Shown piece by piece: positions 1 to 54,496 of a DNA stretch of 64,000 nt. Numbering within the stretch: position 1 is the first letter of the stretch; each line of letters opens with the position of its first letter. The notes under the pieces are model-generated. The model had not been told where the DNA came from and did not search any database. It saw only the letters and a list, made by a program, of their open reading frames with translations. A program made the translations under genes and the position numbers. Source of the stretch: an uncultured Chloroflexia bacterium (GTDB lineage: Bacteria > Chloroflexota > Chloroflexia > Chloroflexales > Herpetosiphonaceae); assembly GCA_963767035.1 (NCBI GenBank), contig CAVYBW010000001.1, positions 2,374,547-2,438,546 of the forward strand. The letters are read 5' to 3'.

Positions 1-303
1 CACGATCTGTTTGGCGATGGATTGTTGCGTGTAGTGAATTTGCCTGGACATGCGCGGGGTCAAATTGGCATGTATATTGCAAATCCACGGCCAATTTTGC
101 TAGCGGCGGATGGCGCTTGGCACTCGCGGGCGATTCGCGAACAAGTCTTGCCGCATCCGATCACCTATGTTGTAATTGATGATGCCAAAGCGCTGGCGGC
201 GACCTTGGCTCGCTTGAGTGCATTTGCCCAAGCCTACCCTGAGGTGTTGATTGTGCCCTGCCATTGCCCAGAAATCTATGCCAGTGAGGTAGCCAAAGCG
301 TGA
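1..303 (+). CDS. C-terminal fragment of a hydrolase-like protein, truncated by window start
   Basis: ORF open from window edge to stop at 301-303; no confident family assignment (weak MBL-fold-like impression). Confidence 0.3.
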   Translation, partial: HDLFGDGLLRVVNLPGHARGQIGMYIANPRPILLAADGAWHSRAIREQVLPHPITYVVIDDAKALAATLARLSAFAQAYPEVLIVPCHCPEIYASEVAKA

Positions 304-1601
304 GCATCAGCGATATTTTAGCCACAGGCTCGTATTTTGGGCGGGCGCGTTGGCGTTGGCGGTGGCTCAATCAGCAGCGTTTGCAGGCTTTTCAAGCTGC
401 CAAGGCGCAGCAATTAATCCCATGGGTAGCCCAACATTCAGCCTTCTATCGTCAGCATTGGCAAGGCCATGATCTGCACGATTGGCGCAACTTGCCGCCA
501 GTTGATAAACGCTTGATGATGGCCAATTTTCGCGAATTCAATACGCTCGAAGTGCCAGCAGCGGCGGCCTTCGATTTAGCCCAACAAGCTGAGCAACAGC
601 GCGATTTTGTGCCCCGCTTAGGCGATCTGACCGTTGGGCTTTCGTCGGGAACATCGGGCCATCGGGGCTTGTTTTTGATTAGCGCTGCTGAGCAATTGTT
701 TTGGGCGGGCACGATTTTGGCCCGAACATTGCACCAGATCAAGCCAACCAAAATCGCCTTTTTTCTGCGTGCCAATAGCAATCTCTACCAACAACTGGGC
801 GGGCGGTTGATTCAATTTCGCTATTTTGATTTGACTCAAGCGCTTGAACCGCAAATTGACATGCTCAATCGCTATCAACCAACGATTATTGTCGCGCCAC
901 CTGGCTTGTTGCTACAATTGCTCGCGGCGGCCCAAACTGGCGCATTAACCCATCGGCCTGAGCGCATTATTAGCGTAGCCGATGCCTTGGCACCAGATGA
1001 ACAAGCGCAACTCAGCACATTTTTTGGCATTCCAATCGAACAAATCTATCAAGCAACCGAGGGCTTGCTTGCGATTTCGTGTGCTCACGGCAGTTTGCAC
1101 ATTCAAGAAGATTTGGTTGCAGTTGATTTTGAGGATTTGGGCCAAGGCCGGGTTACGCCGTATATCACTGATTTATGGCGGCGCACTCAGCCGATTATTC
1201 GCTATCGATTAAATGATGTGTTGCGTTTGAGTTCGCAGCCATGCAGCTGTGGCAGTAGCTTCACTGTGATTGAGCAAATTGAAGGGCGGCGCGATGATAT
1301 TTGTTATTTCACTGCTCATGGCCAGCGCCAAGCGATTTTCCCTGATAGTTTGCGCCGCGCCATCCTCTTGGCGCATCCAGCCATCCAAGAATATCAAATC
1401 ATGCAACCAGCTGATGATCAACTTCAGATCACATTGATGCTGGCAACGACGGCTGATTCTACGCTCATTCATAAGGCAGTTGAGCAACAAATTAAGCTGC
1501 ACTTGGCCGCATATGGCTGTACTGATTATCAACTGACAATTCGGTTTGCAGCGATCGGTTATGGCACGCTGAACAAACGCCGCCGCGTGATTCGTCAATG
1601 A
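300..1601 (+). CDS. adenylate-forming enzyme, coenzyme F390 synthetase / phenylacetate-CoA ligase (PaaK/CapK)-like
   Basis: 433 aa; SSGTSGHRG adenylation-type P-loop motif; GTG start overlapping upstream stop; stop overlaps next ATG (ATGA). Confidence 0.6.
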   Translation: MSISDILATGSYFGRARWRWRWLNQQRLQAFQAAKAQQLIPWVAQHSAFYRQHWQGHDLHDWRNLPPVDKRLMMANFREFNTLEVPAAAAFDLAQQAEQQRDFVPRLGDLTVGLSSGTSGHRGLFLISAAEQLFWAGTILARTLHQIKPTKIAFFLRANSNLYQQLGGRLIQFRYFDLTQALEPQIDMLNRYQPTIIVAPPGLLLQLLAAAQTGALTHRPERIISVADALAPDEQAQLSTFFGIPIEQIYQATEGLLAISCAHGSLHIQEDLVAVDFEDLGQGRVTPYITDLWRRTQPIIRYRLNDVLRLSSQPCSCGSSFTVIEQIEGRRDDICYFTAHGQRQAIFPDSLRRAILLAHPAIQEYQIMQPADDQLQITLMLATTADSTLIHKAVEQQIKLHLAAYGCTDYQLTIRFAAIGYGTLNKRRRVIRQ

Positions 1602-2851
1602 ACTATTGCATCTTGGCGCTTGGTTCGCGTGGTGATGTACAGCCATTTATCGCCTTAGCACTTGGGTTGCAGGCCCAAGGTCATCAGGTTGTAATTGCCG
1701 CCGCCCACGATTATCAAGCCTTGGTCGAGAGCTATGGCTGCCAATTCGCCCCATTAATTGGCTCGATTCAACACTTGCTTGACCCTGAGCAAATGGCGGC
1801 GGGCTTGGCAGCAGGTCGCGGCGCAATTATCAAACAATTTCTGCAACAAACGCCGCCAATTATTCGGCAACTGATGATCGATGCGCTGGCAGCCTGTAGC
1901 GCTGCCGATTGTTTGATTGTGGCAAGTTTGGGCATCTGGCCAGCCTTGCACCTTGCTGAACATTTGCAAATTCCCGTAGTTGTAGCCCATATGCACCCGT
2001 ATGGCGCAACTAGCCAAACCGCTCATCATTTTGCGCCGCAATTGACGTGGCCTGCCTATCGTCGCATGAGCTACCGCTTGGCCGAACAATTGCAATGGCA
2101 AGTGCTGCGTATGGCCTTCAATCAGGCGCGACAGCAGGTGTTGCAGCGCTCACGTTTGAGTGCCAGCCAGCTTTGGCTACGCAGCCGCAATTTTCAGCCG
2201 CCTAGTTTGTATGCCTATAGCGCATTGGTGGCCCCGCCGCCTGCAAACTGGCCCGACGATGGCGCGATCACTGGTTATTGGGTGCTTGAGCCAGCAGCAA
2301 ACTGGCAAGCTCCAGCGGCTGTCCACGATTTTCTGGCAGCAGGATCAGCGCCAATCACCATTAGTTTTGGCAGTATGCTGCATGGGCAACAGCGCGGTGC
2401 GGAATTAAGCCAGTTGCTAATTGCCGCCAGCCAAAAGGCCAAAGTACGCCTAATTATCAACCAAGGTTGGGGCGATTTGGCTCAGGGCCAGCTGCCAGCC
2501 AATTGTTTGGCGGTTAATGGCTTGGTTTATGCTTGGCTGTTTGAGCGCGTTGCGGCAGTGGTGCATCATGGCGGAGCAGGCGTAACCGCAACCGCATTAT
2601 GCGCAGGTAAGCCAGCCTTGGTGACGCCATTTTTAGGCGACCAATATTTTTGGGGCCAACGGGTGTATGCTTTAAAGACTGGGCCAGCGCCCATCCCAGC
2701 CAATCAATTGCAGGTTGGGCAACTAGCCAACCTATTCCGCAGCTTGATTGAACGCACTGATTATCAATTGGCAGCCCAACAGCTGGCCGCTAAATTAGCC
2801 TGTGAGCACGGCGTAACCAAAGCTGTAGCATGGTTAAACCAGCGTTTTTGA
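1598..2851 (+). CDS. GT1-family glycosyltransferase (UDP-glycosyltransferase / MGT-like)
   Basis: 417 aa; N-term LGSRGDVQPFIALA and C-term HHGGAGVTATAL...TPFLGDQYFWGQRV motifs typical of GT-B UDP-glycosyltransferases. Confidence 0.75.
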   Translation: MNYCILALGSRGDVQPFIALALGLQAQGHQVVIAAAHDYQALVESYGCQFAPLIGSIQHLLDPEQMAAGLAAGRGAIIKQFLQQTPPIIRQLMIDALAACSAADCLIVASLGIWPALHLAEHLQIPVVVAHMHPYGATSQTAHHFAPQLTWPAYRRMSYRLAEQLQWQVLRMAFNQARQQVLQRSRLSASQLWLRSRNFQPPSLYAYSALVAPPPANWPDDGAITGYWVLEPAANWQAPAAVHDFLAAGSAPITISFGSMLHGQQRGAELSQLLIAASQKAKVRLIINQGWGDLAQGQLPANCLAVNGLVYAWLFERVAAVVHHGGAGVTATALCAGKPALVTPFLGDQYFWGQRVYALKTGPAPIPANQLQVGQLANLFRSLIERTDYQLAAQQLAAKLACEHGVTKAVAWLNQRF

Positions 2852-2874
2852 AATTTTTAATCCGAGGTAGTATT

Positions 2875-3861
2875 ATGCAGTTTCCTCTACGCATCGCCGG
2901 GATCGGCGCTTACGTCCCAGCAACCATCGTTACCACCAGCGACTTAGCCGAGCGCTTTGGGGTTGATCCAAGCATCATTGAGCGTACCACCGGCATTCGT
3001 GAGCGGCGTTACGCCGTGGAAGAAACTGCCTTGACCATGGCGGTTCAAGCCTCGCAACAAGCGCTTGCTAATGCCAATTATGAGCTTGATAGTATCGATC
3101 TGATTGTGGTCGCTTCGGCAGGTATGCATCAGGTCATCCCATGCACCGCTGCCTTGTTGCAAAAGGCCTTGCAAGCACCAGCTGGCCGCAGCGCCTGCTT
3201 CGATTTAAACGCCACATGTTTGAGTTTTCTGTTTGGCTTGCAATTGTTGGCTCCCTTGATTAACAGTGGTGTCTATCAACGGGTGCTCTTGGTCAGCAGC
3301 GAACGCGCTTCGGTTTCGCTCGATCCCAACGAATGGCAATCGACGGCGCTGTTTGGCGATGCAGCCGCAGCCGTTATTTTGGAGCGCGGCGATGGCAGCA
3401 GTAGCCTAGAACATAGCCAATTTGCGACGTGGAGCAATGGCAGCGATTTGATCCAAATTCGCGGTGGTGGCTCAAACCAGCATCCCAATGCACCCACCAC
3501 CACGCCCGACATGAATTGGTTTACGATGCAAGGGCCGTTGGCCTTTCGGTTTGTATTTCGCGAGCTACAGCAATTTGTGAAGCAATTTTTGGTCGAGCTT
3601 GGCTGGCAAAATCACGAAGTCGATGCCTTGATTCCGCATCAAGCCAACCGCCATGCAATTGAGCAAGTACAGGCTCGGTTGGGATTTACGCCCGATCAAG
3701 TGATTAGCAATTTTGCCAAACGTGGCAATTGTGTTGCCGCCTCAATCCCCTTGGCCTTGGCCGAAGCTGTGGCCGAGGGCCGAATTCAACGCGGCAATCG
3801 GTTGGTGCTGCTTGGCTCTGGCGCTGGCATTACCTTGGGCGTGGTGGCCTTGATTTACTAG
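2875..3861 (+). CDS. 3-oxoacyl-ACP synthase III (FabH-like KAS III)
   Basis: about 328 aa from the MQFPLRIAGIGAYVP start; FabH-like N-terminus and overall length; RBS GAGGTAG upstream. Confidence 0.8.
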   Translation: MQFPLRIAGIGAYVPATIVTTSDLAERFGVDPSIIERTTGIRERRYAVEETALTMAVQASQQALANANYELDSIDLIVVASAGMHQVIPCTAALLQKALQAPAGRSACFDLNATCLSFLFGLQLLAPLINSGVYQRVLLVSSERASVSLDPNEWQSTALFGDAAAAVILERGDGSSSLEHSQFATWSNGSDLIQIRGGGSNQHPNAPTTTPDMNWFTMQGPLAFRFVFRELQQFVKQFLVELGWQNHEVDALIPHQANRHAIEQVQARLGFTPDQVISNFAKRGNCVAASIPLALAEAVAEGRIQRGNRLVLLGSGAGITLGVVALIY

Positions 3862-3870
3862 GAATCAATC

Positions 3871-4629
3871 ATGCTTGTGTTGATTACTGGGGCTGGCACG
3901 GGCCTTGGTCAGGCAATGGCACTGGCCTTGGCCAAACGGGGCGCAACGATCATTTTAGTTGGCCGTCGCCGCGAACAGCTGGTGTATAGCGCTGGCTTGG
4001 TTCTTCGTGCTGGTGGCCAAGCTTGGCCAATCGTTTGTGATTTAAGCGATCGCCAAGCGGTGCAAACCTTGGCTGCGCAAATCACCCAACGGTATGTTCA
4101 GCTTGATTTAGTAATTCATAATGCCGCAAATCTTGCAGGCGCAGCCTTTGCGCACCTACCTGAAGCCGAAATTTTGCCCACAATCAACACCAATCTGGTA
4201 CACCCAATTTGGCTAACCCGACTGCTCTTGCCCAAAGCAGTCTTGATTGTTGGCAGCAGCGTTAGCCGCGTGGCGATGCCTGGCGCAAGTTTGTATAGCC
4301 TGAGCAAAGCTGCGCTTGAGGCGTGGGGCTTAGCACTTGCCGCCGAAACAACAATCAAGGTTGTGCGCGCCTATCCGCCTGCCAGCAAAACCGCCATGAC
4401 CGCCGCCATGGCCCAGCAAACCAGCCAACGGTTTCCACTGGCGGAGCCAAGCAAAGTTGGCGAACAGATTATTCAGCGCTACTTGGCAGGCGAAACCGAA
4501 ATTATACTTAGTATCAATGATAGACTCCTTTTTTGGCTGCAACGCTACAGCCCAAAACTGCTACAAATGCTGCTTAAACGCTATCATCAACAGCTAATCA
4601 AGCTTTGGAGTGCCAAAATAGGCATTTGA
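3871..4629 (+). CDS. short-chain dehydrogenase/reductase (SDR)
   Basis: 252 aa; TGAGTGLG Rossmann motif at N-terminus. Confidence 0.8.
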   Translation: MLVLITGAGTGLGQAMALALAKRGATIILVGRRREQLVYSAGLVLRAGGQAWPIVCDLSDRQAVQTLAAQITQRYVQLDLVIHNAANLAGAAFAHLPEAEILPTINTNLVHPIWLTRLLLPKAVLIVGSSVSRVAMPGASLYSLSKAALEAWGLALAAETTIKVVRAYPPASKTAMTAAMAQQTSQRFPLAEPSKVGEQIIQRYLAGETEIILSINDRLLFWLQRYSPKLLQMLLKRYHQQLIKLWSAKIGI

Positions 4630-4705
4630 CAAACAACAAACAGCCAACTACAATTGCCGCCTTGTTGATACTTAATATCAATAATTATATAAGAAAGGTT
4701 TGGCA

Positions 4706-6250
4706 ATGCGGCGTTTTGGCACTCAGCTTTTCGGGCTGATTCTAATGATACAGCTGTTAATCGCGTGTGGATCAACCAGCGCAGACCCTCAAGCAGCGAT
4801 TTCGACTACCGAGCAACCAAGCAACTCAAATGGCGAATTGCGTATTGGCACGGGCATTAATTTGCCGACCAGTTTGGATGTAGCCCAAGGATCGACGGGC
4901 TACAATATGCTGACCTATGGCGCAGGCGAAACACTAATGCGCTTTACGCCCAGCAATCAGCTTGAGCCTTGGCTGGCTGAAAGCGTTAGCGCGCTCAATT
5001 CAACCACATGGCAAATCAAATTGCGCCAAGGTATTCGCTTTCACGATGGCAGTGAACTTAAGGCCAGCGATGTTGTAACCTCATTCAACAGCAGTTGGCA
5101 AAACCTAAGCGCTGCCAAAAACTTCATTCCTGCAGATAGCAAAACAAGCGTGATTGATGATTACACCCTCAACTTGAGCACTAGCCAAGCTGAAGGCAGC
5201 ATTCCCTATAGCCTCGCCAACTGGAATTTCGTCATTCATAAGCCTGCCGTCAATGGCATTTCGATTTTGACTGGCATGTATCAGCCGATCAGGCTTGAAA
5301 AAGATCAAGAGCTGGTGCTCGAACGCTTTGCCAATTATTGGGATGGTCAGGCGGGCTTACAAAAAATCAGTGTCAAGAAAATTCCCGATGCCAATGCCCG
5401 TGCCTTGGCCTTGCAAAGTGGCGATCTGGATATGTTGACCAATGTTGCCCCAGATATTGCGCGTGGGCTACCAGCTGAGATTGAGATTCAGAGCGTTGCT
5501 GGCACACGAATGCATTATGTTATGTTAGATACTGCTAATCCACCATTTGATGATCGTTTGGTGCGTCAAGCGCTAACCTTGGCGATCGATCGCCAAGCCC
5601 TGTTACAAGCGACGCTCGATGGCCAAGGCGCAGTGGCAACCAATCTCTATCCCTCAACGGTTGGAATTGAGCTGGTCGAAGCCCAAATTTTTGATCCGGC
5701 CCAAGCGGCCAGTTTGCTTGATCAAGCTGGTTGGGTTGTTGGTAGCGATGGCATGCGCAGCAAAAATGGCCAGCCGCTGGCGTTTACCTTGCACAGCTAC
5801 CCTGGCCGCCCCGAACTCAGCTTGATGGCAATCGCGATTCAAGCCCAATTAAAAACCCTTGGAATTAATGTCGAAGTCAACGAAGTGGCCGATATTGGCG
5901 AAGTGGTGGAAAAAGGCAACTTCCAAGCCAGCATGTACTCAATCGGCACATCAGGCGACCCACAATACACGGTTGGCACGACGCTCATTCAAGGTGCAGC
6001 CTACAACTACGCTGGCTACAGCAATCCGGCGATTGAAAGCGCTTTTGTTGAGTTGCGCGCCGAACAAGACCCCGCCAAACGCATGCAACTGGCCAAACGA
6101 ATCCAAACCGAGGTCAAAAATGATCCGGTTAATGTGTACCTTGCCAGCCCGCCGCTGATTACGGCTTATCGCAAGGGCAGCATCAGTGGCTACGTGCCCA
6201 ATCCCAACGATGTCTATTTGATCACCAAGGATTTGAAACTTAATCGATGA
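4706..6250 (+). CDS. ABC transporter substrate-binding lipoprotein, family 5 (Dpp/Opp/Nik-like)
   Basis: 514 aa; lipoprotein signal LLIACGS; family-5 SBP length and composition; RBS GAAAGG 7 nt upstream of ATG. Confidence 0.85.
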   Translation: MRRFGTQLFGLILMIQLLIACGSTSADPQAAISTTEQPSNSNGELRIGTGINLPTSLDVAQGSTGYNMLTYGAGETLMRFTPSNQLEPWLAESVSALNSTTWQIKLRQGIRFHDGSELKASDVVTSFNSSWQNLSAAKNFIPADSKTSVIDDYTLNLSTSQAEGSIPYSLANWNFVIHKPAVNGISILTGMYQPIRLEKDQELVLERFANYWDGQAGLQKISVKKIPDANARALALQSGDLDMLTNVAPDIARGLPAEIEIQSVAGTRMHYVMLDTANPPFDDRLVRQALTLAIDRQALLQATLDGQGAVATNLYPSTVGIELVEAQIFDPAQAASLLDQAGWVVGSDGMRSKNGQPLAFTLHSYPGRPELSLMAIAIQAQLKTLGINVEVNEVADIGEVVEKGNFQASMYSIGTSGDPQYTVGTTLIQGAAYNYAGYSNPAIESAFVELRAEQDPAKRMQLAKRIQTEVKNDPVNVYLASPPLITAYRKGSISGYVPNPNDVYLITKDLKLNR

Positions 6251-7197
6251 GCGATTTGCTACGCCAATCTGCTGGGCGCTTGGTGAGTGGGCTGATTGTG
6301 TTGTGGATGGTCAGCATGCTGGCCTTCCTAATTATTCACGCTGCCCCAGGCGATCCAGCTCGCATGCTGTTGAGCGCGAATGGGCTTGATGCGCCGCCAG
6401 CAGAAGCCGTCGCGGCCAAACGGCGTGAGCTAGGGCTTGATCAAGCATTGTTCAGCCAATATGCCACTTGGATGCGCCGAATTGGGCAGGGCGATTTTGG
6501 CATGAGCTATCGTTCGGGCAAGCCAGTTTGGCAAATGTATCGCGAACGCTTGCCAGCAACCTTGCTCATGGCAGGCTTGGCGCTAACGCTCTCGCTGAGT
6601 ATTGCAATTCCCTTGGGCCTAATCAGCGCCATCAAGCGCCATAGTATCTTGGATTATGCGGCCCAACTTTTGGCAGTAATCGGGGCGGCAATTCCAGGCT
6701 TTTGGATTGCGCTGGTGCTCATGTTGGTATTTGCAGCCAAATTGCGTTGGTTGCCAGCCTTGGGGAGTGCCACATTTAAAGGCATGCTGTTGCCAGCAAT
6801 CATCTTGGCCTTGCCGAATATTGCCCTAACCTCGCGCTTGGTTCGCGCCACCACGCTTGATGTGCTAAATCAGCAATATATTGTAACTGCGCGAGCCAAA
6901 GGCCGCTCAGAACATGGATTGTTATTTGTCCATGCCTTGCCGAATATTGCCACCAGTTTAATCACCCCGATTAGCCTAGAGCTAGCCTTTTTGCTAACTG
7001 GCACAGTGATTATCGAACATGTTTTTGCGTATCCGGGAGTTGGGCGGATGGCGGTCGAGGCAGCGTTAGTTGGCGATATGCCAGTTTTGGGCTTGGCAGT
7101 GTTGATCGCAGGAGGAATCTATGTTATCGCTAACTGGTGCGCTGACCTCGGCATGGCAGCGCTTGACCCACGGCTCCGCCAAAAAACATCAAATTGA
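6247..7197 (+). CDS. ABC transporter permease (DppB/OppB-like)
   Basis: 316 aa; multi-TM; start overlaps SBP stop (ATGA). Confidence 0.85.
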   Translation: MSDLLRQSAGRLVSGLIVLWMVSMLAFLIIHAAPGDPARMLLSANGLDAPPAEAVAAKRRELGLDQALFSQYATWMRRIGQGDFGMSYRSGKPVWQMYRERLPATLLMAGLALTLSLSIAIPLGLISAIKRHSILDYAAQLLAVIGAAIPGFWIALVLMLVFAAKLRWLPALGSATFKGMLLPAIILALPNIALTSRLVRATTLDVLNQQYIVTARAKGRSEHGLLFVHALPNIATSLITPISLELAFLLTGTVIIEHVFAYPGVGRMAVEAALVGDMPVLGLAVLIAGGIYVIANWCADLGMAALDPRLRQKTSN

Positions 7198-7244
7198 ACC
7201 TATTGAGCATTATGAGCAACGTACCAAGCCGCAATTGAGCCGGA

Positions 7245-8036
7245 TTGGTCGCATGGCTGCCGGGCATGTTAATCTTGATGTTTAGCGCAGTCTGGATTGG
7301 CCCATGGTTTTGGCAGGTTGATCCGTTAGCTCAGAATATTGCTCAACGTTTAGCGCCGCCATCATTCAGCAATCCATTCGGCACTGATCAATTTGGTCGC
7401 GATGTTTTAGCCCGGATTTTGATTGGCGGGCGGTGGTCGTTATTGGGTGCAAGCTTGGTGTGCCTTGGCACCAGTTGTTTGGGCCTGACGATTGGGGCAT
7501 GCTGCGCCTTGGGGCCGCGCTGGTTGGATTATCTTCTGAGCCGCATAACCGAAACCTTGCAAGCGATTCCAACAGTCTTGTTAGCACTGACCCTGAGCGC
7601 CATTCTCTCACGCTCGTTTGGCAATTTGCTTTTGGCGTTGGTGCTGACCAACTGGACGTGGTATGCCCGCATGTATCGGGCATTGATCAGCAAAGAATTG
7701 GCCATGCCCTATATCGAAGGAGCGCAGGTGATTGGGGTCAAACCGTTGGCGATTTTAGTGCGCCACGTTTTGCCCAACCTATTTGGCGCAATGGTTGTGG
7801 TTGCAACCACCAACTTTGGCAGCGTTATTTTGAATCTTTCGGCGTTGTCGTTTATTGGCTTTGGCCTCAACCCACCAACCCCTGAATGGGGCAATTTGAT
7901 TAATGAATCGCGAGCATTTTTTCAGCGTGAGCCACGCCTAATGCTTATTCCAGGTTTGTGCATCGCCACAACCGTACTTTGGATTAATATCTTGGGCAAT
8001 GCCTTGCGCGATCGGTTTGATCTGGATAGATCATAA
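7245..8036 (+). CDS. ABC transporter permease (DppC/OppC-like)
   Basis: 263 aa; multi-TM; follows DppB-like permease; no ATPase genes follow. Confidence 0.8.
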   Translation: MVAWLPGMLILMFSAVWIGPWFWQVDPLAQNIAQRLAPPSFSNPFGTDQFGRDVLARILIGGRWSLLGASLVCLGTSCLGLTIGACCALGPRWLDYLLSRITETLQAIPTVLLALTLSAILSRSFGNLLLALVLTNWTWYARMYRALISKELAMPYIEGAQVIGVKPLAILVRHVLPNLFGAMVVVATTNFGSVILNLSALSFIGFGLNPPTPEWGNLINESRAFFQREPRLMLIPGLCIATTVLWINILGNALRDRFDLDRS

Positions 8037-8084
8037 ATCGAGGGATCAGAGGTCAGCAGCTAGGGGCCAGCAAGAAAAAAATAA

Positions 8085-8119
8085 TCCCATCAATCTGTGG
8101 AATCTGTGGCTAAAAAAGG
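8085..8119 (+). repeat. 35-bp dispersed repeat with tandem AATCTGTGG x2 and an A-run (copy 1)
   Basis: catcaatctgtggaatctgtggctaaaaaaggatc matches the reverse complement of about 14392-14427 at 32/35 positions. Confidence 0.6.
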
Positions 8120-8238
8120 ATCTTCGTGGAATTCATGCAATTCGCGGCTAAATAGTGAACTTTCGCGCTCTTCGTGGTCAAAACAAACCCCCGCCACCAA
8201 GCAGGTAGCGAGGGTTATTCGGCCATAGTAAAACCTAA

Positions 8239-9297
8239 TTAATCAAGATAGGCTCGGAGGTGTTGGCCAACATTGGGTTGGCGCAAATGACGCATGGCTT
8301 CGGCTTCGATTTGGCGGGTGCGTTCGCGAGTAATCCCGAATTCGGCCCCGACTTCTTCGAGCGTCCGGCGTTTGCCATCGGCCAAGCCATAGCGCAACTG
8401 CAAGATTTGGCGTTCGCGGTCGGGCAATTGCGATAGCGCATCGGCCAGCTCATCGTGCAACATCATGCGGGTTGCTTGCTCAAGTGGCGCTTCATCGGTA
8501 TCGTCGGCCAAAAACTCGCCAACCCGGCCTTGGCCTTCTTTGCCGATTGGTTGCTCAAGCGAAACGGGCTGCACTGAAGCATTCAGCATGCGTTTGACTT
8601 TCCGCAAGCTCACACCCAAGGCATCGGCCAACTCATCGGGAGTAGCCTCACGTTGCAGTGCTTGTTCGAGCTGGTAGGCAACCCGGCGCATTTGAGCGAT
8701 TGATTCGCTCAAGTGAACTGGCAAGCGGATGGTTCGGCTTTGCTCAGCGATAGCCCGGGTAACTGCTTGGCGAATCCACCAAGTAGCATAGGTTGAAAAA
8801 CGATTGCCTTTGCGATAATCGAACTTTTCGACTGCTCGCATCAAGCCAATATTGCCTTCTTGGATCAGATCCATGAACCACATGTGATTGCCAATATATT
8901 TTTTGGCGACGCTCACCACCAAGCGCAAATTGGCTTGGGTAAGTTTACGCCGACCTTCATTACCAAAATCGACGCGGCGTTCGAGAGATTTACGCTCGTC
9001 CCAAGTTGCATATTGTTCGGTTTGCAGCTGGAGCTCCGCCTTGCGCCCAGTTTCAATTTGCTTTGCTAGCGTAATTTCTTCCTCGGCGGTAAGCAACTCA
9101 ACCTCGCCGATTTCACGCAAATACATCTGTACTGAATCTTCGACAGCCTCGGAATAGAGCGTTTTCTTGCGGCGTAGGTTTACTATGGCCAATTCTGCGT
9201 CTTCATCGACAAAACCCGGCTCAAGCTCCCAGCCCTCGGGGGCGTCTTCAAGATCCGGTTGGTTTTTTGCTACATTCATCGTTTCATACTTTGTCAT
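8239..9297 (-). CDS. rpoD: RNA polymerase sigma factor RpoD/SigA (group 1 sigma-70)
   Basis: regions 1.2-4.2 recognisable (IGNHMWFMDLIQEGNIGLMRAVEKFDY, RLPVHL, C-terminal HTH); start taken at MTKYETMNVAKN; followed by a 490-bp AT-rich leader. Confidence 0.9.
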   Translation of the reverse strand: MTKYETMNVAKNQPDLEDAPEGWELEPGFVDEDAELAIVNLRRKKTLYSEAVEDSVQMYLREIGEVELLTAEEEITLAKQIETGRKAELQLQTEQYATWDERKSLERRVDFGNEGRRKLTQANLRLVVSVAKKYIGNHMWFMDLIQEGNIGLMRAVEKFDYRKGNRFSTYATWWIRQAVTRAIAEQSRTIRLPVHLSESIAQMRRVAYQLEQALQREATPDELADALGVSLRKVKRMLNASVQPVSLEQPIGKEGQGRVGEFLADDTDEAPLEQATRMMLHDELADALSQLPDRERQILQLRYGLADGKRRTLEEVGAEFGITRERTRQIEAEAMRHLRQPNVGQHLRAYLD

Positions 9298-35893: not shown

Positions 35894-35923
35894 CTAAGTG
35901 TGTGCTATTATACATAGGTCAAC

Positions 35924-35998
<75 letters not shown>

Positions 35999-36043
35999 AA
36001 CTAAAGATTTGAGCGGCTTGCTAAACAAGCCGCTCATTCTGTG

Positions 36044-36119
<76 letters not shown>

Positions 36120-51718: not shown

Positions 51719-52064
51719 GCAGCAACATTGGCAAGGTTTTATCACCGCTTTCAATGAAGAACGCTTTGTCGATGGGGTACTACAATTGGAAGAATTGTGG
51801 TTTCCCACCCGCAACGATCTCTATCGTGGCCTGATTCGGCTGTCGGTAGCGCTCAACCAACTGCGTTTGGGGATTGTTGATAGCCCGCGCCAGCTACTTG
51901 CCAGCGCCCATGAAATGCTGGCTCCATTTGAAACCAACCAACACAACCTCGATATTCAGCGCATTCGCGAGTATATTCAAGTTTGTGCCAGTTTAATTCC
52001 CGCCGATCTGCACACTGGCCAAGGTCGCATCGATTGGGAGCAAGTTCCCCGCATTCAGCTCTAA
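51711..52064 (+). CDS. DUF309 domain protein
   Basis: about 117 aa; FNEERFxDGxLQLEELW pattern typical of DUF309. Confidence 0.55.
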   Translation: MNEQQHWQGFITAFNEERFVDGVLQLEELWFPTRNDLYRGLIRLSVALNQLRLGIVDSPRQLLASAHEMLAPFETNQHNLDIQRIREYIQVCASLIPADLHTGQGRIDWEQVPRIQL

Positions 52065-52177
52065 GAATTTCCAAGTTTGGCGCACCGATACTTAATCATT
52101 CAATTGACTGGTGTCTTGGTATTTCTCCAGCATATATCCTGACGCATAATAGGATTATAGTGGGAAGGAGTTGCCAC

Positions 52178-52579
52178 ATGACTCAGATTATCGATAAACT
52201 GGCTTGGATTCAGATTGTTGAGAAGCGAATTCTTAGTACCCGTTCCAAGGGTAAAACGATTTATTATCTTCCTGGCGGCAAGCGTGAAGTTGGCGAAACC
52301 GATCGCGCATGCTTAGTACGTGAGATCAAAGAAGAACTTGATGTTGAGCTGATTCCAGAAACACTCCACTATCTCGGTCAATTTGAAGCGCAAGCCCATG
52401 GCCAGCATGAAGGGATCATGGTAAAAATGACTTGTTATACTGGTGATTATCGAGGAACATTAAGCGCATCAGCCGAAATAGAGGAGCTAATTTGGTTAAC
52501 CCATGACGATAAAGCCAAGATTTCTCCCGTAGACCAAATTATTTTTGATTGGCTCAAACAACAAGCTTTGCTTGCCTAA
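52178..52579 (+). CDS. NUDIX hydrolase
   Basis: 133 aa; Nudix box GGKREVGETDRACLVREIKEELDVE; RBS GGAAGGAG. Confidence 0.8.
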   Translation: MTQIIDKLAWIQIVEKRILSTRSKGKTIYYLPGGKREVGETDRACLVREIKEELDVELIPETLHYLGQFEAQAHGQHEGIMVKMTCYTGDYRGTLSASAEIEELIWLTHDDKAKISPVDQIIFDWLKQQALLA

Positions 52580-52599
52580 TCTACATTGGCTCATATTAA

Positions 52600-52628
52600 T
52601 TGACATAGAACATGTGTTCGTGTATACT
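52600..52628 (+). promoter_or_regulatory. consensus sigma-70 promoter with embedded LexA-type (Cheo/GAAC-N4-GTTC) operator
   Basis: TTGACA-17-TATACT; spacer contains aGAACATGTGTTCg (consensus CGAACRNRYGTTCG). Confidence 0.65.
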
Positions 52629-52774
52629 CAAAACACGAATTCTCCAAGTTGCTGCTTGTAATCCACGGTGCGCACCCATGCTTGTGGGCTTGAATCAAGC
52701 CCCAATCTAGGCTTTTACCAGCCGCGATGCTTGGAGCATTGCAACGATTGAGTACAACACGAAGGGTAACCGAG

Positions 52775-53002
52775 ATGCAGATTGAGCCAATTCACTTAAC
52801 CCACAAACGCCATAATTATTTGCCGATGGCCTTTTTATGGCGTGGAATCAGCCATCAGGTCGCGAAGATTGAGCGAGTTTGGAGCAAAGAGGCACGTTGG
52901 GCGCGACCACCACGCCACTATTTTCGGGTGCGCTGCACCAACAATCAGGTTTACAACATTTTTCAGGATGTGCGCTTAAATGCGTGGTGCGTTGAACGCT
53001 AG
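52775..53002 (+). CDS. hypothetical small basic protein (75 aa; W/R/H-rich)
   Basis: first ORF downstream of the LexA-box promoter; an alternative start at 52727 gives 91 aa; weak DUF4160-like PxxxxWxGI...PPRHYF resemblance. Confidence 0.45.
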   Translation: MQIEPIHLTHKRHNYLPMAFLWRGISHQVAKIERVWSKEARWARPPRHYFRVRCTNNQVYNIFQDVRLNAWCVER

Positions 53003-53014
53003 AGGAGGCCGATC

Positions 53015-53242
53015 GTGTATTTAGCTTGGTTTGATGACCATCCGCGGAAAGAACTCCGTTTCAAAATTGCCGAAGCAATCTTCGCCTATGAAGATCGGTT
53101 TGGTGAACGACCAAATGTCGTGCTCGTCAACGCGACTCAGATCTTCAACGAAGATGTTGAGGGCGTGCGCGTGGTTTCACGCTCCTATGTTCGCAAAGAT
53201 AATTTTTGGGTTGGCATCGAAGGTATCGTTGCTAGCTCGTAG
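53015..53242 (+). CDS. hypothetical small acidic protein (75 aa)
   Basis: GTG start 6 nt after a perfect AGGAGG RBS that overlaps the stop of the upstream ORF, same frame, 12-nt gap. Confidence 0.5.
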   Translation: MYLAWFDDHPRKELRFKIAEAIFAYEDRFGERPNVVLVNATQIFNEDVEGVRVVSRSYVRKDNFWVGIEGIVASS

Positions 53243-53389
53243 TTGGTCGGCAGCAGATTGCCCAATTCCCCGTCTGTAAGATTTGTGTTAATTCTCCTCT
53301 AGCTTGCCTGTTTAAAAAATCGACTTGTGGCACAATATATTGGGATACGCACATATGCGTAATTCGATATATTGTGTCACGAGGATTTT

Positions 53390-54496
53390 ATGTCATTATT
53401 CGAGCCATACACGCTGCCCGTTAGCGGAGTTACCCTACCCAATCGCCTCGTTCTCGCCCCAATGACCACCTACTCAGGTACACCTGAAGGCCAAATTAGC
53501 CCTGGCGAAGTTGCCTTATTACAACGGCGTGCTGCTGGCGGTTTCGGCACGGTTATGACCGCTGCATGCTATGTTGATCGGGCTGGCCAGGCTTTTATCA
53601 ACCAATGGGGCTGCGATAATGACGACAAAATCGATTCATTACGCAAAGCAGCGAGCGCCATCAAAGCTGAAGGCTCGATCGCAATTTTGCAAATTCACGA
53701 TGGTGGGCGCATGGCCGACCCCAAAGTATTGATCGATCCTGCGCCACGTTCAGCCTCAGCGGTTGCCGCCGAACGCCAAGGCTACCTTGAGCCACGCGCC
53801 ATGACTGCCGCCGAAGTTGAAAAAAGCATTGCCGATTTTGCGGCTGCGGCCAAACGCGCTGCTGTGGCTGGCTTTGATGGCGTGGAAATCCACGGCGCAA
53901 ATACCTATTTGATTCAACAATTCTTCTCACCACACTCCAACCGCCGCGATGACGAGTGGGGCGGAGATTTGGAACGCCGCTTGCGCTACCCAATTACCTT
54001 GGCCAAAGCCGTGCGTGCAGCTGTCGGCGATAACTTCATTGTGGGCTATCGCTTCTCGCCTGAGGAGATCGAAAATCCAGGCATCACTTTTGAAGATACC
54101 TTGGTTTTGGTTGATCGTTTGGCTGATTGCCGCTTGGATTATTTGCATATTTCGTTGGGCAATTATGCTGCTGGCTCAATGCGCGATCCGCAATCGACCC
54201 AACGCCTTAGCCCATTGGTGATTGAAAAATTAGCTGGGCGCGTGCCGTTGATGGCCGTTGGCGGGATCGAAACCGTTGAACAAGCCGAATTGCCATTAAG
54301 CGATGGCGCTGAATTAGTGGCACTTGGTCGGGTTGCTTTGTGGGAGCCAGAATGGCCCAATAAAGTCAAAGCAGGCCGCACCGATCTGCGTCAAGCCTTG
54401 CCTGCCAAAGATGGCGACATTATTTGTACTTTGCCTCGGCCATTGTATGAAGGCATTGTGCAACGCGCTGGTTGGGTCAAAATCGCCGCCGAGTAA
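53390..54496 (+). CDS. NADH:flavin oxidoreductase, Old Yellow Enzyme family
   Basis: about 368 aa; OYE TIM-barrel pattern (LAPMTTYS, HGANTYLIQQFFSP); 10-bp inverted repeat cacaatatat/atatattgtg upstream. Confidence 0.8.
   Translation: MSLFEPYTLPVSGVTLPNRLVLAPMTTYSGTPEGQISPGEVALLQRRAAGGFGTVMTAACYVDRAGQAFINQWGCDNDDKIDSLRKAASAIKAEGSIAILQIHDGGRMADPKVLIDPAPRSASAVAAERQGYLEPRAMTAAEVEKSIADFAAAAKRAAVAGFDGVEIHGANTYLIQQFFSPHSNRRDDEWGGDLERRLRYPITLAKAVRAAVGDNFIVGYRFSPEEIENPGITFEDTLVLVDRLADCRLDYLHISLGNYAAGSMRDPQSTQRLSPLVIEKLAGRVPLMAVGGIETVEQAELPLSDGAELVALGRVALWEPEWPNKVKAGRTDLRQALPAKDGDIICTLPRPLYEGIVQRAGWVKIAAE

Follow-up and report, generated by a model that had tools for sequence, protein, structure and literature searches.

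A probable LexA-controlled pair of small genes in Herpetosiphonaceae, linked by gene neighbourhood to FtsK-type ATPases across Chloroflexota

Here we analyse a cassette of two small open reading frames (ORFs), ORF1 and ORF2, in a 64-kb stretch of DNA (hereafter the window) from an uncultured Chloroflexia bacterium of the family Herpetosiphonaceae. Its promoter carries a LexA-type palindrome between the −35 and −10 hexamers, and relatives of ORF2 in other Chloroflexota share operons with lexA and with a gene for an FtsK-type ATPase. Overall, the cassette is probably best explained as a LexA-repressed (SOS) bicistronic operon, whose products may be partners of an FtsK-type DNA translocase. The regulatory design is that of a textbook SOS promoter; the regulated genes are not described in the sources that we searched, and we infer their functional role from gene neighbourhood.

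A LexA-type operator inside the promoter

The cassette promoter consists of a −35 hexamer, TTGACA (52600–52605, plus strand), and a −10 hexamer, TATACT (52623–52628, plus strand), separated by 17 nucleotides (nt). It agrees with the consensus at 11 of 12 positions and is the best promoter-like site between 52000 and 54000. Positions 3–14 of its spacer hold the operator core GAACATGTGTTC, a perfect GAAC-N4-GTTC (52608–52619, plus strand), which lies within the 14-mer AGAACATGTGTTCG (52607–52620, plus strand). Two genes in the same frame, 12 nt apart, follow behind the promoter (52775–53002 and 53015–53242). A preliminary description made from the DNA letters had proposed both the palindrome in the spacer of a near-consensus promoter and the pair of ORFs, and the sequence bears out both. 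The LexA motif in Firmicutes and Actinobacteria is GAAC-N4-GTTC, and varied forms of it are reported for Chloroflexi (PMC4951493). We read the palindrome as a LexA operator because this literature, the conservation footprint of the promoter and a scan for the same architecture elsewhere provide three independent lines of evidence.

A scan of genome contigs with an alignment of DUF6504, the Pfam family of ORF1, found the locus in five Herpetosiphon genomes with 96–97% protein identity, which assigns the window to a species of Herpetosiphon; in H. aurantiacus DSM 785, the locus lies at about 577 kb of CP000875. Upstream of orthologues with 47–69% protein identity and dissimilar gene neighbourhoods, conservation is limited to TTGAC, the box and the −10 element. 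All 16 distinct Chloroflexia-type cassette promoters follow the pattern TTGAC-N3-GAAC-N4-GTTC-N3-TAnnnT, and their flanks diverge. TTGAC is invariant in every cassette promoter aligned or extracted, TA.A.T is kept in the orthologous promoters, and the box, retained in all 16, is perfect in 12 and has one mismatch in four.

Scanning metagenomes for the architecture TTGACNNNGAACANNNGTTCNNNTANNNT returned at least 120 loci, and the first downstream gene could be classified in 110 of them. About half of these genes are canonical SOS genes: they include at least 21 that encode RecA, at least 17–18 that encode LexA and at least four that encode Y-family polymerases, together with genes for UvrA, UvrB, at least three Ogt-type proteins and others. 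At least nine encode LysM proteins like YneA or ChiZ. By their annotation, two of the LexA proteins come from Candidatus Promineifilaceae and Caldilineales. These are lineages of Chloroflexota, and the same arrangement, with the operator embedded in the promoter, therefore also precedes lexA in this phylum. The proposal of an SOS cassette with a Cheo-type operator is thus supported by the footprint in 16 promoters and by an architecture that elsewhere precedes recA and lexA, and regulation of the cassette by LexA appears very probable from these comparisons.

The same scan also returned genes that are themselves candidates for uncharacterised SOS genes. Six proteins of about 134 amino acids (aa) with a GerE/LuxR-type helix-turn-helix (HTH) form one cluster (L066, L068, L079, L117, L127 and L164; L numbers denote individual loci). 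Ten further small proteins have 80–146 aa, with a LysM match in at least nine (L056, L071, L090 and others), and several clusters are without a Pfam match (for example, L067/L153/L169, L093/L104 and L131/L140).

Taken together, motif, position, conservation and the same architecture elsewhere suggest how repression and release would work. In the undamaged cell, a LexA dimer on AGAACATGTGTTCG would fill the spacer between −35 and −10 and exclude RNA polymerase. After DNA damage, RecA-stimulated self-cleavage of LexA would free a strong promoter.

Two small genes under purifying selection

ORF1 (52775–53002, plus strand; stop codon TAG at 53000–53002) encodes 75 aa. We place its start at the ATG at 52775 because the homologues have 73–80 aa and a Shine–Dalgarno sequence, AAGGG, lies at 52762–52766 (plus strand). 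A longer reading of 91 aa that starts at 52727 was rejected, as the extension is missing from homologues outside the genus. ORF1 matches Pfam DUF6504 (PF20114) with an E value of 5.4e-8 and 33.5 bits, above the gathering cut-off of 24.2 (residues 18–81 of the 91-aa ORF). This was the only match in a Pfam scan at E ≤ 1; a faint likeness to DUF4160, suggested earlier, did not appear among the matches. We collected 34 homologues with lengths of 73–116 aa. The protein is strongly basic and rich in Trp, Arg and His, as had been noted, with an isoelectric point (pI) of 10.6, a net charge of +8, and 10 Arg, 5 His and 4 Trp residues. Its AlphaFold 2 (AF2) model, with a predicted local distance difference test (pLDDT) score of 88, is all-beta with six strands. 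The literature searched contained no mention or described function of DUF6504/PF20114.

ORF2 (53015–53242, plus strand) encodes a 75-aa alpha/beta protein and starts with GTG. Its Shine–Dalgarno sequence, AGGAGG (53003–53008, plus strand), ends 6 nt ahead of the GTG, as first described, and begins directly after the stop codon of ORF1 rather than overlapping it. This element is kept in five Herpetosiphon species. So are the junction TAGAGGAGGCC..CGTG and the GTG start, in five other species of the genus, and the TAGAGGAGG junction between the two genes is conserved within Herpetosiphon. The earlier label of an acidic protein holds in a mild form (pI 5.3, net charge −2.4). ORF2 gave no match in Pfam, NCBIfam, PHROGs, PADLOC or PDB sequences. 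For ORF1, the family databases gave DUF6504 alone.

ORF2 nevertheless belongs to a large, unnamed family. A profile search of 1.84 billion cluster representatives found 842 clusters (50% identity) at E ≤ 1e-3 and 125 at E ≤ 1e-10. They share a well-defined domain of about 70 aa with the consensus MYLxWFDD..KK....KI.EA..AY..RFG..PNVVLVN.........NFWVG.E, and the named members come from Roseiflexaceae and Thermobaculum terrenum (Tter_1618). About 10 of the 150 best representatives carry long, low-complexity tails of Pro, Ala, Lys and Arg with a net charge of about +9 to +32. Extensions among these 150 are low-complexity tails of this kind, and no DUF6504–ORF2 fusion protein was found among them. 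The structure model of ORF2 has a low pLDDT of 69, and no meaning attaches to its fold matches; profile searches of PDB sequences with both the DUF6504 and the ORF2 family returned noise only (E ≥ 0.05). Neither protein has a long hydrophobic stretch, with a grand average of hydropathy (GRAVY) of −0.67 for ORF1 and −0.20 for ORF2.

Within Herpetosiphon, codon differences are 135 synonymous versus 30 non-synonymous in ORF1 and 231 versus 24 in ORF2, and nucleotide differences at codon positions 1, 2 and 3 number 5, 21 and 148 in ORF1 and 32, 0 and 244 in ORF2. This third-position bias indicates that both are translated genes under strong purifying selection; judged by their codons, ORF1 and ORF2 are real, constrained genes. 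Identity to more distant homologues is 37–69%. Conservation in related genomes, on which the preliminary description had made the case for the cassette depend, is clear for both ORFs.

ORF2 relatives in SOS-type operons of Chloroflexota

With three exceptions, ORF2 comes next after DUF6504 in the DUF6504 loci that we fetched, and relatives of ORF2 stand behind LexA-type boxes in every locus with readable DNA. In Anaerolineae, both genes are part of a four-gene operon in the order FtsK-like ATPase, membrane protein, DUF6504, ORF2 (L030, L031, L036, L038, L040–L043, L046 and L175); the first gene has one or two GAAC-N4-GTTC boxes, within its promoter or immediately downstream of it. The Anaerolineae ATPase is a soluble protein of the FtsK/SpoIIIE family with 365–390 aa, an FtsK_alpha domain and a motor domain (E values of 1e-30 to 1e-36); SOS-linked FtsK-like ATPases of Chloroflexota span 365–436 aa overall. 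Pfam scans found no match to a gamma domain. Among curated families, the ATPase matches the FtsK motor best (1e-46); EccC and TraB come behind it (1e-8 for TraB), and matches to TraB and TraD are weak. The accompanying membrane protein has about 130 aa and a conserved C-terminal F(T/S)IVGGE.

Among the metagenome SOS-promoter loci listed, at least four contain relatives of ORF2 (L096, L161, L165 and L060). Two of them, L096 (4958–7422) and L161 (1165–3400, minus strand), have an SOS promoter followed by lexA, an FtsK-like ATPase gene and ORF2 in one operon, and the lexA of L161 is the Candidatus Promineifilaceae gene mentioned above. In L165, the promoter precedes a degenerate FtsK-like gene and ORF2, and in L060 it precedes ORF2 alone. 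A further locus, L130, lacks an ORF2 relative and has, behind its SOS promoter, genes for a Cys-rich protein, an FtsK-like ATPase and a membrane protein. An FtsK-like gene also adjoins lexA in L052 and L148.

We also looked up four ORF2 relatives with available DNA that had been chosen independently of promoter and DUF6504, and all four have the box. In Thermobaculum terrenum (CP001825; L171, 5837–6228), Tter_1618 is monocistronic and divergent from mraZ, which heads a division and cell-wall cluster; just upstream of Tter_1618 is TATAAT-A-GAACTTAGGTTC, a perfect GAACTTAGGTTC right after the −10 element. On a contig from Roseiflexaceae, the same promoter and operator precede an uncalled DUF6504 ORF and then ORF2. 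In L174, an ORF2 relative with a long basic tail stands alone behind a one-mismatch box and is followed by a DinB_2 gene, and L175 has the four-gene operon behind a one-mismatch box and then priA.

The window and the loci alike hold a single copy of the cassette each, and the lineages concerned belong to several classes of Chloroflexota. The cassette loci have ordinary chromosomal neighbours and no integrase. A tblastn search of 72,556 plasmid records with both proteins found nothing, and pattern scans of IMG/VR built from alignments of close relatives found no relatives in viral contigs. The 150 kb of the H. aurantiacus plasmid pHAU01 that were read contain one intragenic chance match to the box and no SOS gene with a box; the FtsK/SpoIIIE protein encoded there, Haur_5007, is only about 25% identical to the SOS-linked ATPases. 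No LexA-like ORF was found in cassette loci L001–L047, and the literature searched held nothing relevant on LexA in Herpetosiphon.

A proposed role beside an FtsK-type translocase

On this reading, an SOS module found across the phylum takes, in Chloroflexia, the form of the ORF1–ORF2 pair. The ORF2 family is its constant element, and lexA, the FtsK-type motor, the small membrane protein and DUF6504 are its variable partners. Once released from repression, the cassette transcript would yield the basic, beta-rich DUF6504 protein and then, 12 nt on, the alpha/beta ORF2 protein of about 70 aa. Both could be induced by damage as partners of an FtsK-type translocase, in an accessory or DNA-binding capacity, and would thereby act on DNA at or near the division septum. 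We put forward, as a tentative proposal, that ORF1 and ORF2 act together with or on such a translocase after damage, because the two genes are coupled, ORF1 and the tails of ORF2 relatives are basic, and an FtsK-like gene is a repeated neighbour. The polycationic tails of the ORF2 family and the +8 charge of ORF1 fit an association with nucleic acids.

More speculative still, and rather doubtful as it stands, is the idea of an undescribed, Chloroflexota-wide SOS ‘split FtsK’, induced by damage and built around the ORF2 family, with a soluble motor in which no gamma domain was detected, a separate membrane anchor, and DUF6504 and ORF2 as DNA-binding or regulatory subunits. It would move or clear DNA at the septa of filamentous multicellular bacteria after damage and, conceivably, also move DNA between neighbouring cells of a filament. 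In Herpetosiphon, this locus would then have retained just the two small subunits.

Alternative explanations

Several observations weigh against reading the cassette as an SOS operon for FtsK partners. GAAC-N4-GTTC occurs once in the window, where 0.72 copies are expected by chance, so its occurrence alone is not significant; a one-mismatch scan of the window found no further convincing intergenic site of this type. The operator consensus for Herpetosiphon is taken from relatives and not from its own lexA and recA promoters. Two species, Herpetosiphon sp. NSE202 and H. llansteffanensis, have GCAC in place of GAAC in one half-site of an otherwise identical promoter (L020 and L021, about 4833–4844). 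Neither the window nor the DNA up to about 5 kb from any Chloroflexia cassette holds a gene for an FtsK-like ATPase or the membrane partner, and the functional link therefore rests on neighbourhoods in other classes. One relative of ORF2 belongs to a phage- or plasmid-like SSB/RepB-primase/DUF1064 module. Finally, a distant DUF6504-like gene (4013–4246 of L018, which spans 1–9246) follows a gene for a 69-aa membrane protein in an element with a tyrosine integrase, an excisionase-like HTH protein, a HerA-like ATPase and a Prok-E2_D protein; it has neither an ORF2 partner nor a LexA box.

Both the chance-level count and the borrowed consensus would suit a palindrome that matches by coincidence or serves a regulator that is not LexA. 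Such an origin is very improbable given the fixed position of the box in 16 diverged promoters and the fact that about half of the metagenome promoters with this architecture drive recA, lexA or other canonical SOS genes: the weight of the operator evidence rests on placement and conservation, not on mere presence. The two mobile-looking neighbourhoods, together with the weak TraB and TraD matches of the ATPase, could be taken to mean that the cassette is a domesticated remnant of a DNA-transfer or replication module from a mobile element, which came under LexA control by happenstance. We consider this improbable. The ATPase matches the FtsK motor far better than TraB, the cassette loci have no integrase among their chromosomal neighbours, and the Herpetosiphon proteins have no plasmid or viral matches.

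What the proteins do is a separate matter, and here an SOS inhibitor of cell division, a functional analogue of SulA, YneA or ChiZ that blocks septation during repair, deserves the most attention among the alternatives to the FtsK-partner role. Most studied SOS regulons include a small division inhibitor, and we know of none for Chloroflexota. The Thermobaculum gene diverges from mraZ at the head of its division cluster, the module is linked elsewhere to an FtsK-like ATPase and a membrane protein, and LysM-type, inhibitor-like genes stand behind the same promoter architecture in other bacteria. However, neither protein has a long hydrophobic stretch or a LysM domain, which speaks against the YneA/ChiZ type proposed as one option in the preliminary description; neither resembles SulA, and a single mraZ neighbourhood is weak evidence. 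Division inhibition as such is therefore unlikely, and a cytoplasmic, division-related role for ORF1 and ORF2 is possible. This alternative overlaps with the FtsK-partner explanation, as FtsK acts at the septum.

An SOS-controlled type II toxin–antitoxin pair, in which one protein would poison growth after damage and the other neutralise it, had been the other option. LexA-controlled toxin–antitoxin loci are known in E. coli (dinJ-yafQ, yafNO, tisB and symE), and two small, tightly coupled genes with products of opposite net charge look the part. Yet no toxin, antitoxin or defence family matched in Pfam, NCBIfam, PHROGs or PADLOC, and family and fold searches recognised no DNA-binding antitoxin fold. 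Nor does the distribution suit such a pair: the cassette is a single copy per locus in several Chloroflexota classes under strong purifying selection, it has no copies in the 72,556 plasmid records and no close relatives in the viral contigs, it shares operons elsewhere with genes for LexA, an FtsK-like ATPase and a membrane protein, and ORF2 relatives also stand alone behind SOS boxes. A toxin–antitoxin module is thus improbable, and a role as FtsK partners is, we infer, the likelier of the two. About equally improbable is that the products are small modulators of RecA or LexA activity, akin to DinI, RecX or PsiB. ORF2 is small, mildly acidic and SOS-controlled, and its relatives share an operon with lexA in L096 and L161; against this, there is no similarity in sequence or fold to any of these three proteins, and the consistent neighbour is an FtsK-type ATPase rather than recA.

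Leader and flanking genes

The promoter is separated from ORF1 by a leader of 146 nt (52629–52774, plus strand) that is specific to the genus Herpetosiphon, with 87–89% identity within the genus; in most other Herpetosiphonaceae, the leader has about 20–40 nt. It contains a hairpin, GGGCTTGAATCAAGCCC (52686–52702, plus strand), with paired changes in the stem in H. aurantiacus, where two pairs switch together from G-C to A-U (GG/CC to AA/TT). No known RNA in Rfam matched the 146-nt leader, and no second copy was found in the remaining DNA examined. Locus L016 also has a long leader, which is unrelated to that of Herpetosiphon. In L012 and L025 (Herpetosiphonaceae bacterium KatS3mg057), a second palindrome, AGTACATATGTACG, lies in the leader at about 4965–4985, between the −10 element and the start codon of DUF6504, with GTAC half-sites in place of GAAC.

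Directly upstream of the cassette promoter in the window is a NUDIX hydrolase gene (51983–52579). It is missing from that position in the H. aurantiacus-like loci (L008 and L019), and in other Herpetosiphonaceae (L001, L005 and L007) a NUDIX gene lies about 1.2–1.4 kb downstream on the opposite strand. Downstream of ORF2 is a gene for an Old Yellow Enzyme-type NADH:flavin oxidoreductase (53372–54496). Between the two, an inverted repeat at 53324–53383, with arms of 28 nt that are 79% complementary and 4 nt apart, overlaps a weak promoter-like site and could be the operator of the oxidoreductase gene. No terminator-like site was seen after ORF2. Elsewhere in the window, two tRNA genes 49 nt apart (35923–36115) are the sole Rfam matches.

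Discussion

To our knowledge, the experimental mapping of SOS regulons in Chloroflexota has gone no further than LexA binding in Dehalococcoides, and we know of no damage-induced division or segregation factor in the filamentous members of the phylum. The cassette offers a concrete and strongly conserved candidate pair for the damage response of Chloroflexota, and could hint at an SOS module that is new, particular to this lineage and centred on an FtsK-like motor. ORF2 defines an unnamed family of hundreds of sequence clusters with a LexA-type box at each readable locus, and the cassette places DUF6504 in a regulatory and genomic setting for the first time. That relatives of ORF2 are repeatedly co-transcribed with lexA and an FtsK-type motor leads to a testable idea, namely that damage control reaches DNA translocation at the septum. 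Cultured hosts exist in Herpetosiphon aurantiacus and, for Tter_1618, Thermobaculum terrenum, and the GCAC half-site variant of L020 and L021 provides a natural test of operator strength. Should the proteins prove to be ordinary small repair accessories, they would still be a useful, if unsurprising, addition to a poorly known regulon.

The cassette shares features with several known systems. It has the same dyad as the Cheo-box LexA operators of Firmicutes and Actinobacteria, with consensus-like flanks (AGAACATGTGTTCG) and inside a sigma-70-type promoter; unlike in those regulons, the genes under control here belong to two uncharacterised families that are in no described SOS regulon found in the literature. 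ORF1 scores above the gathering threshold of Pfam DUF6504, for which a link to SOS and to the ORF2 family is unrecorded in the sources searched. As with yneA-yneB-ynzC of B. subtilis, chiZ of M. tuberculosis and sulA of E. coli, small genes stand directly behind a LexA box; ORF1 and ORF2 differ from their products in having no membrane segment, no LysM domain and no similarity to SulA. E. coli dinJ-yafQ and yafNO are likewise pairs of small co-transcribed genes under LexA, and the cassette differs from them in its lack of toxin–antitoxin domains and of any sign of mobility and in its larger conserved operons. The lexA-imuA-imuB-dnaE2 cassette is alike in being multi-gene, LexA-controlled and sometimes in an operon with lexA (as in L096 and L161); here, however, the ATPase is FtsK-like and not ImuA-like, and no IMS (Y-family polymerase) or DnaE2 family turned up in the gene calls and scans of the cassette loci.

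E. coli ftsK, which is transcribed from the SOS promoter dinH (PMC4080785), is alike in placing an FtsK-type DNA translocase under the control of DNA damage. The ATPase gene is absent from the Herpetosiphon cassette locus, and where Chloroflexota have it, the protein is instead short and soluble (365–436 aa), with a membrane protein encoded separately alongside. In Anaerolineae and Promineifilaceae, this FtsK/SpoIIIE ATPase is the first or second gene of a LexA-box operon that ends in ORF2.

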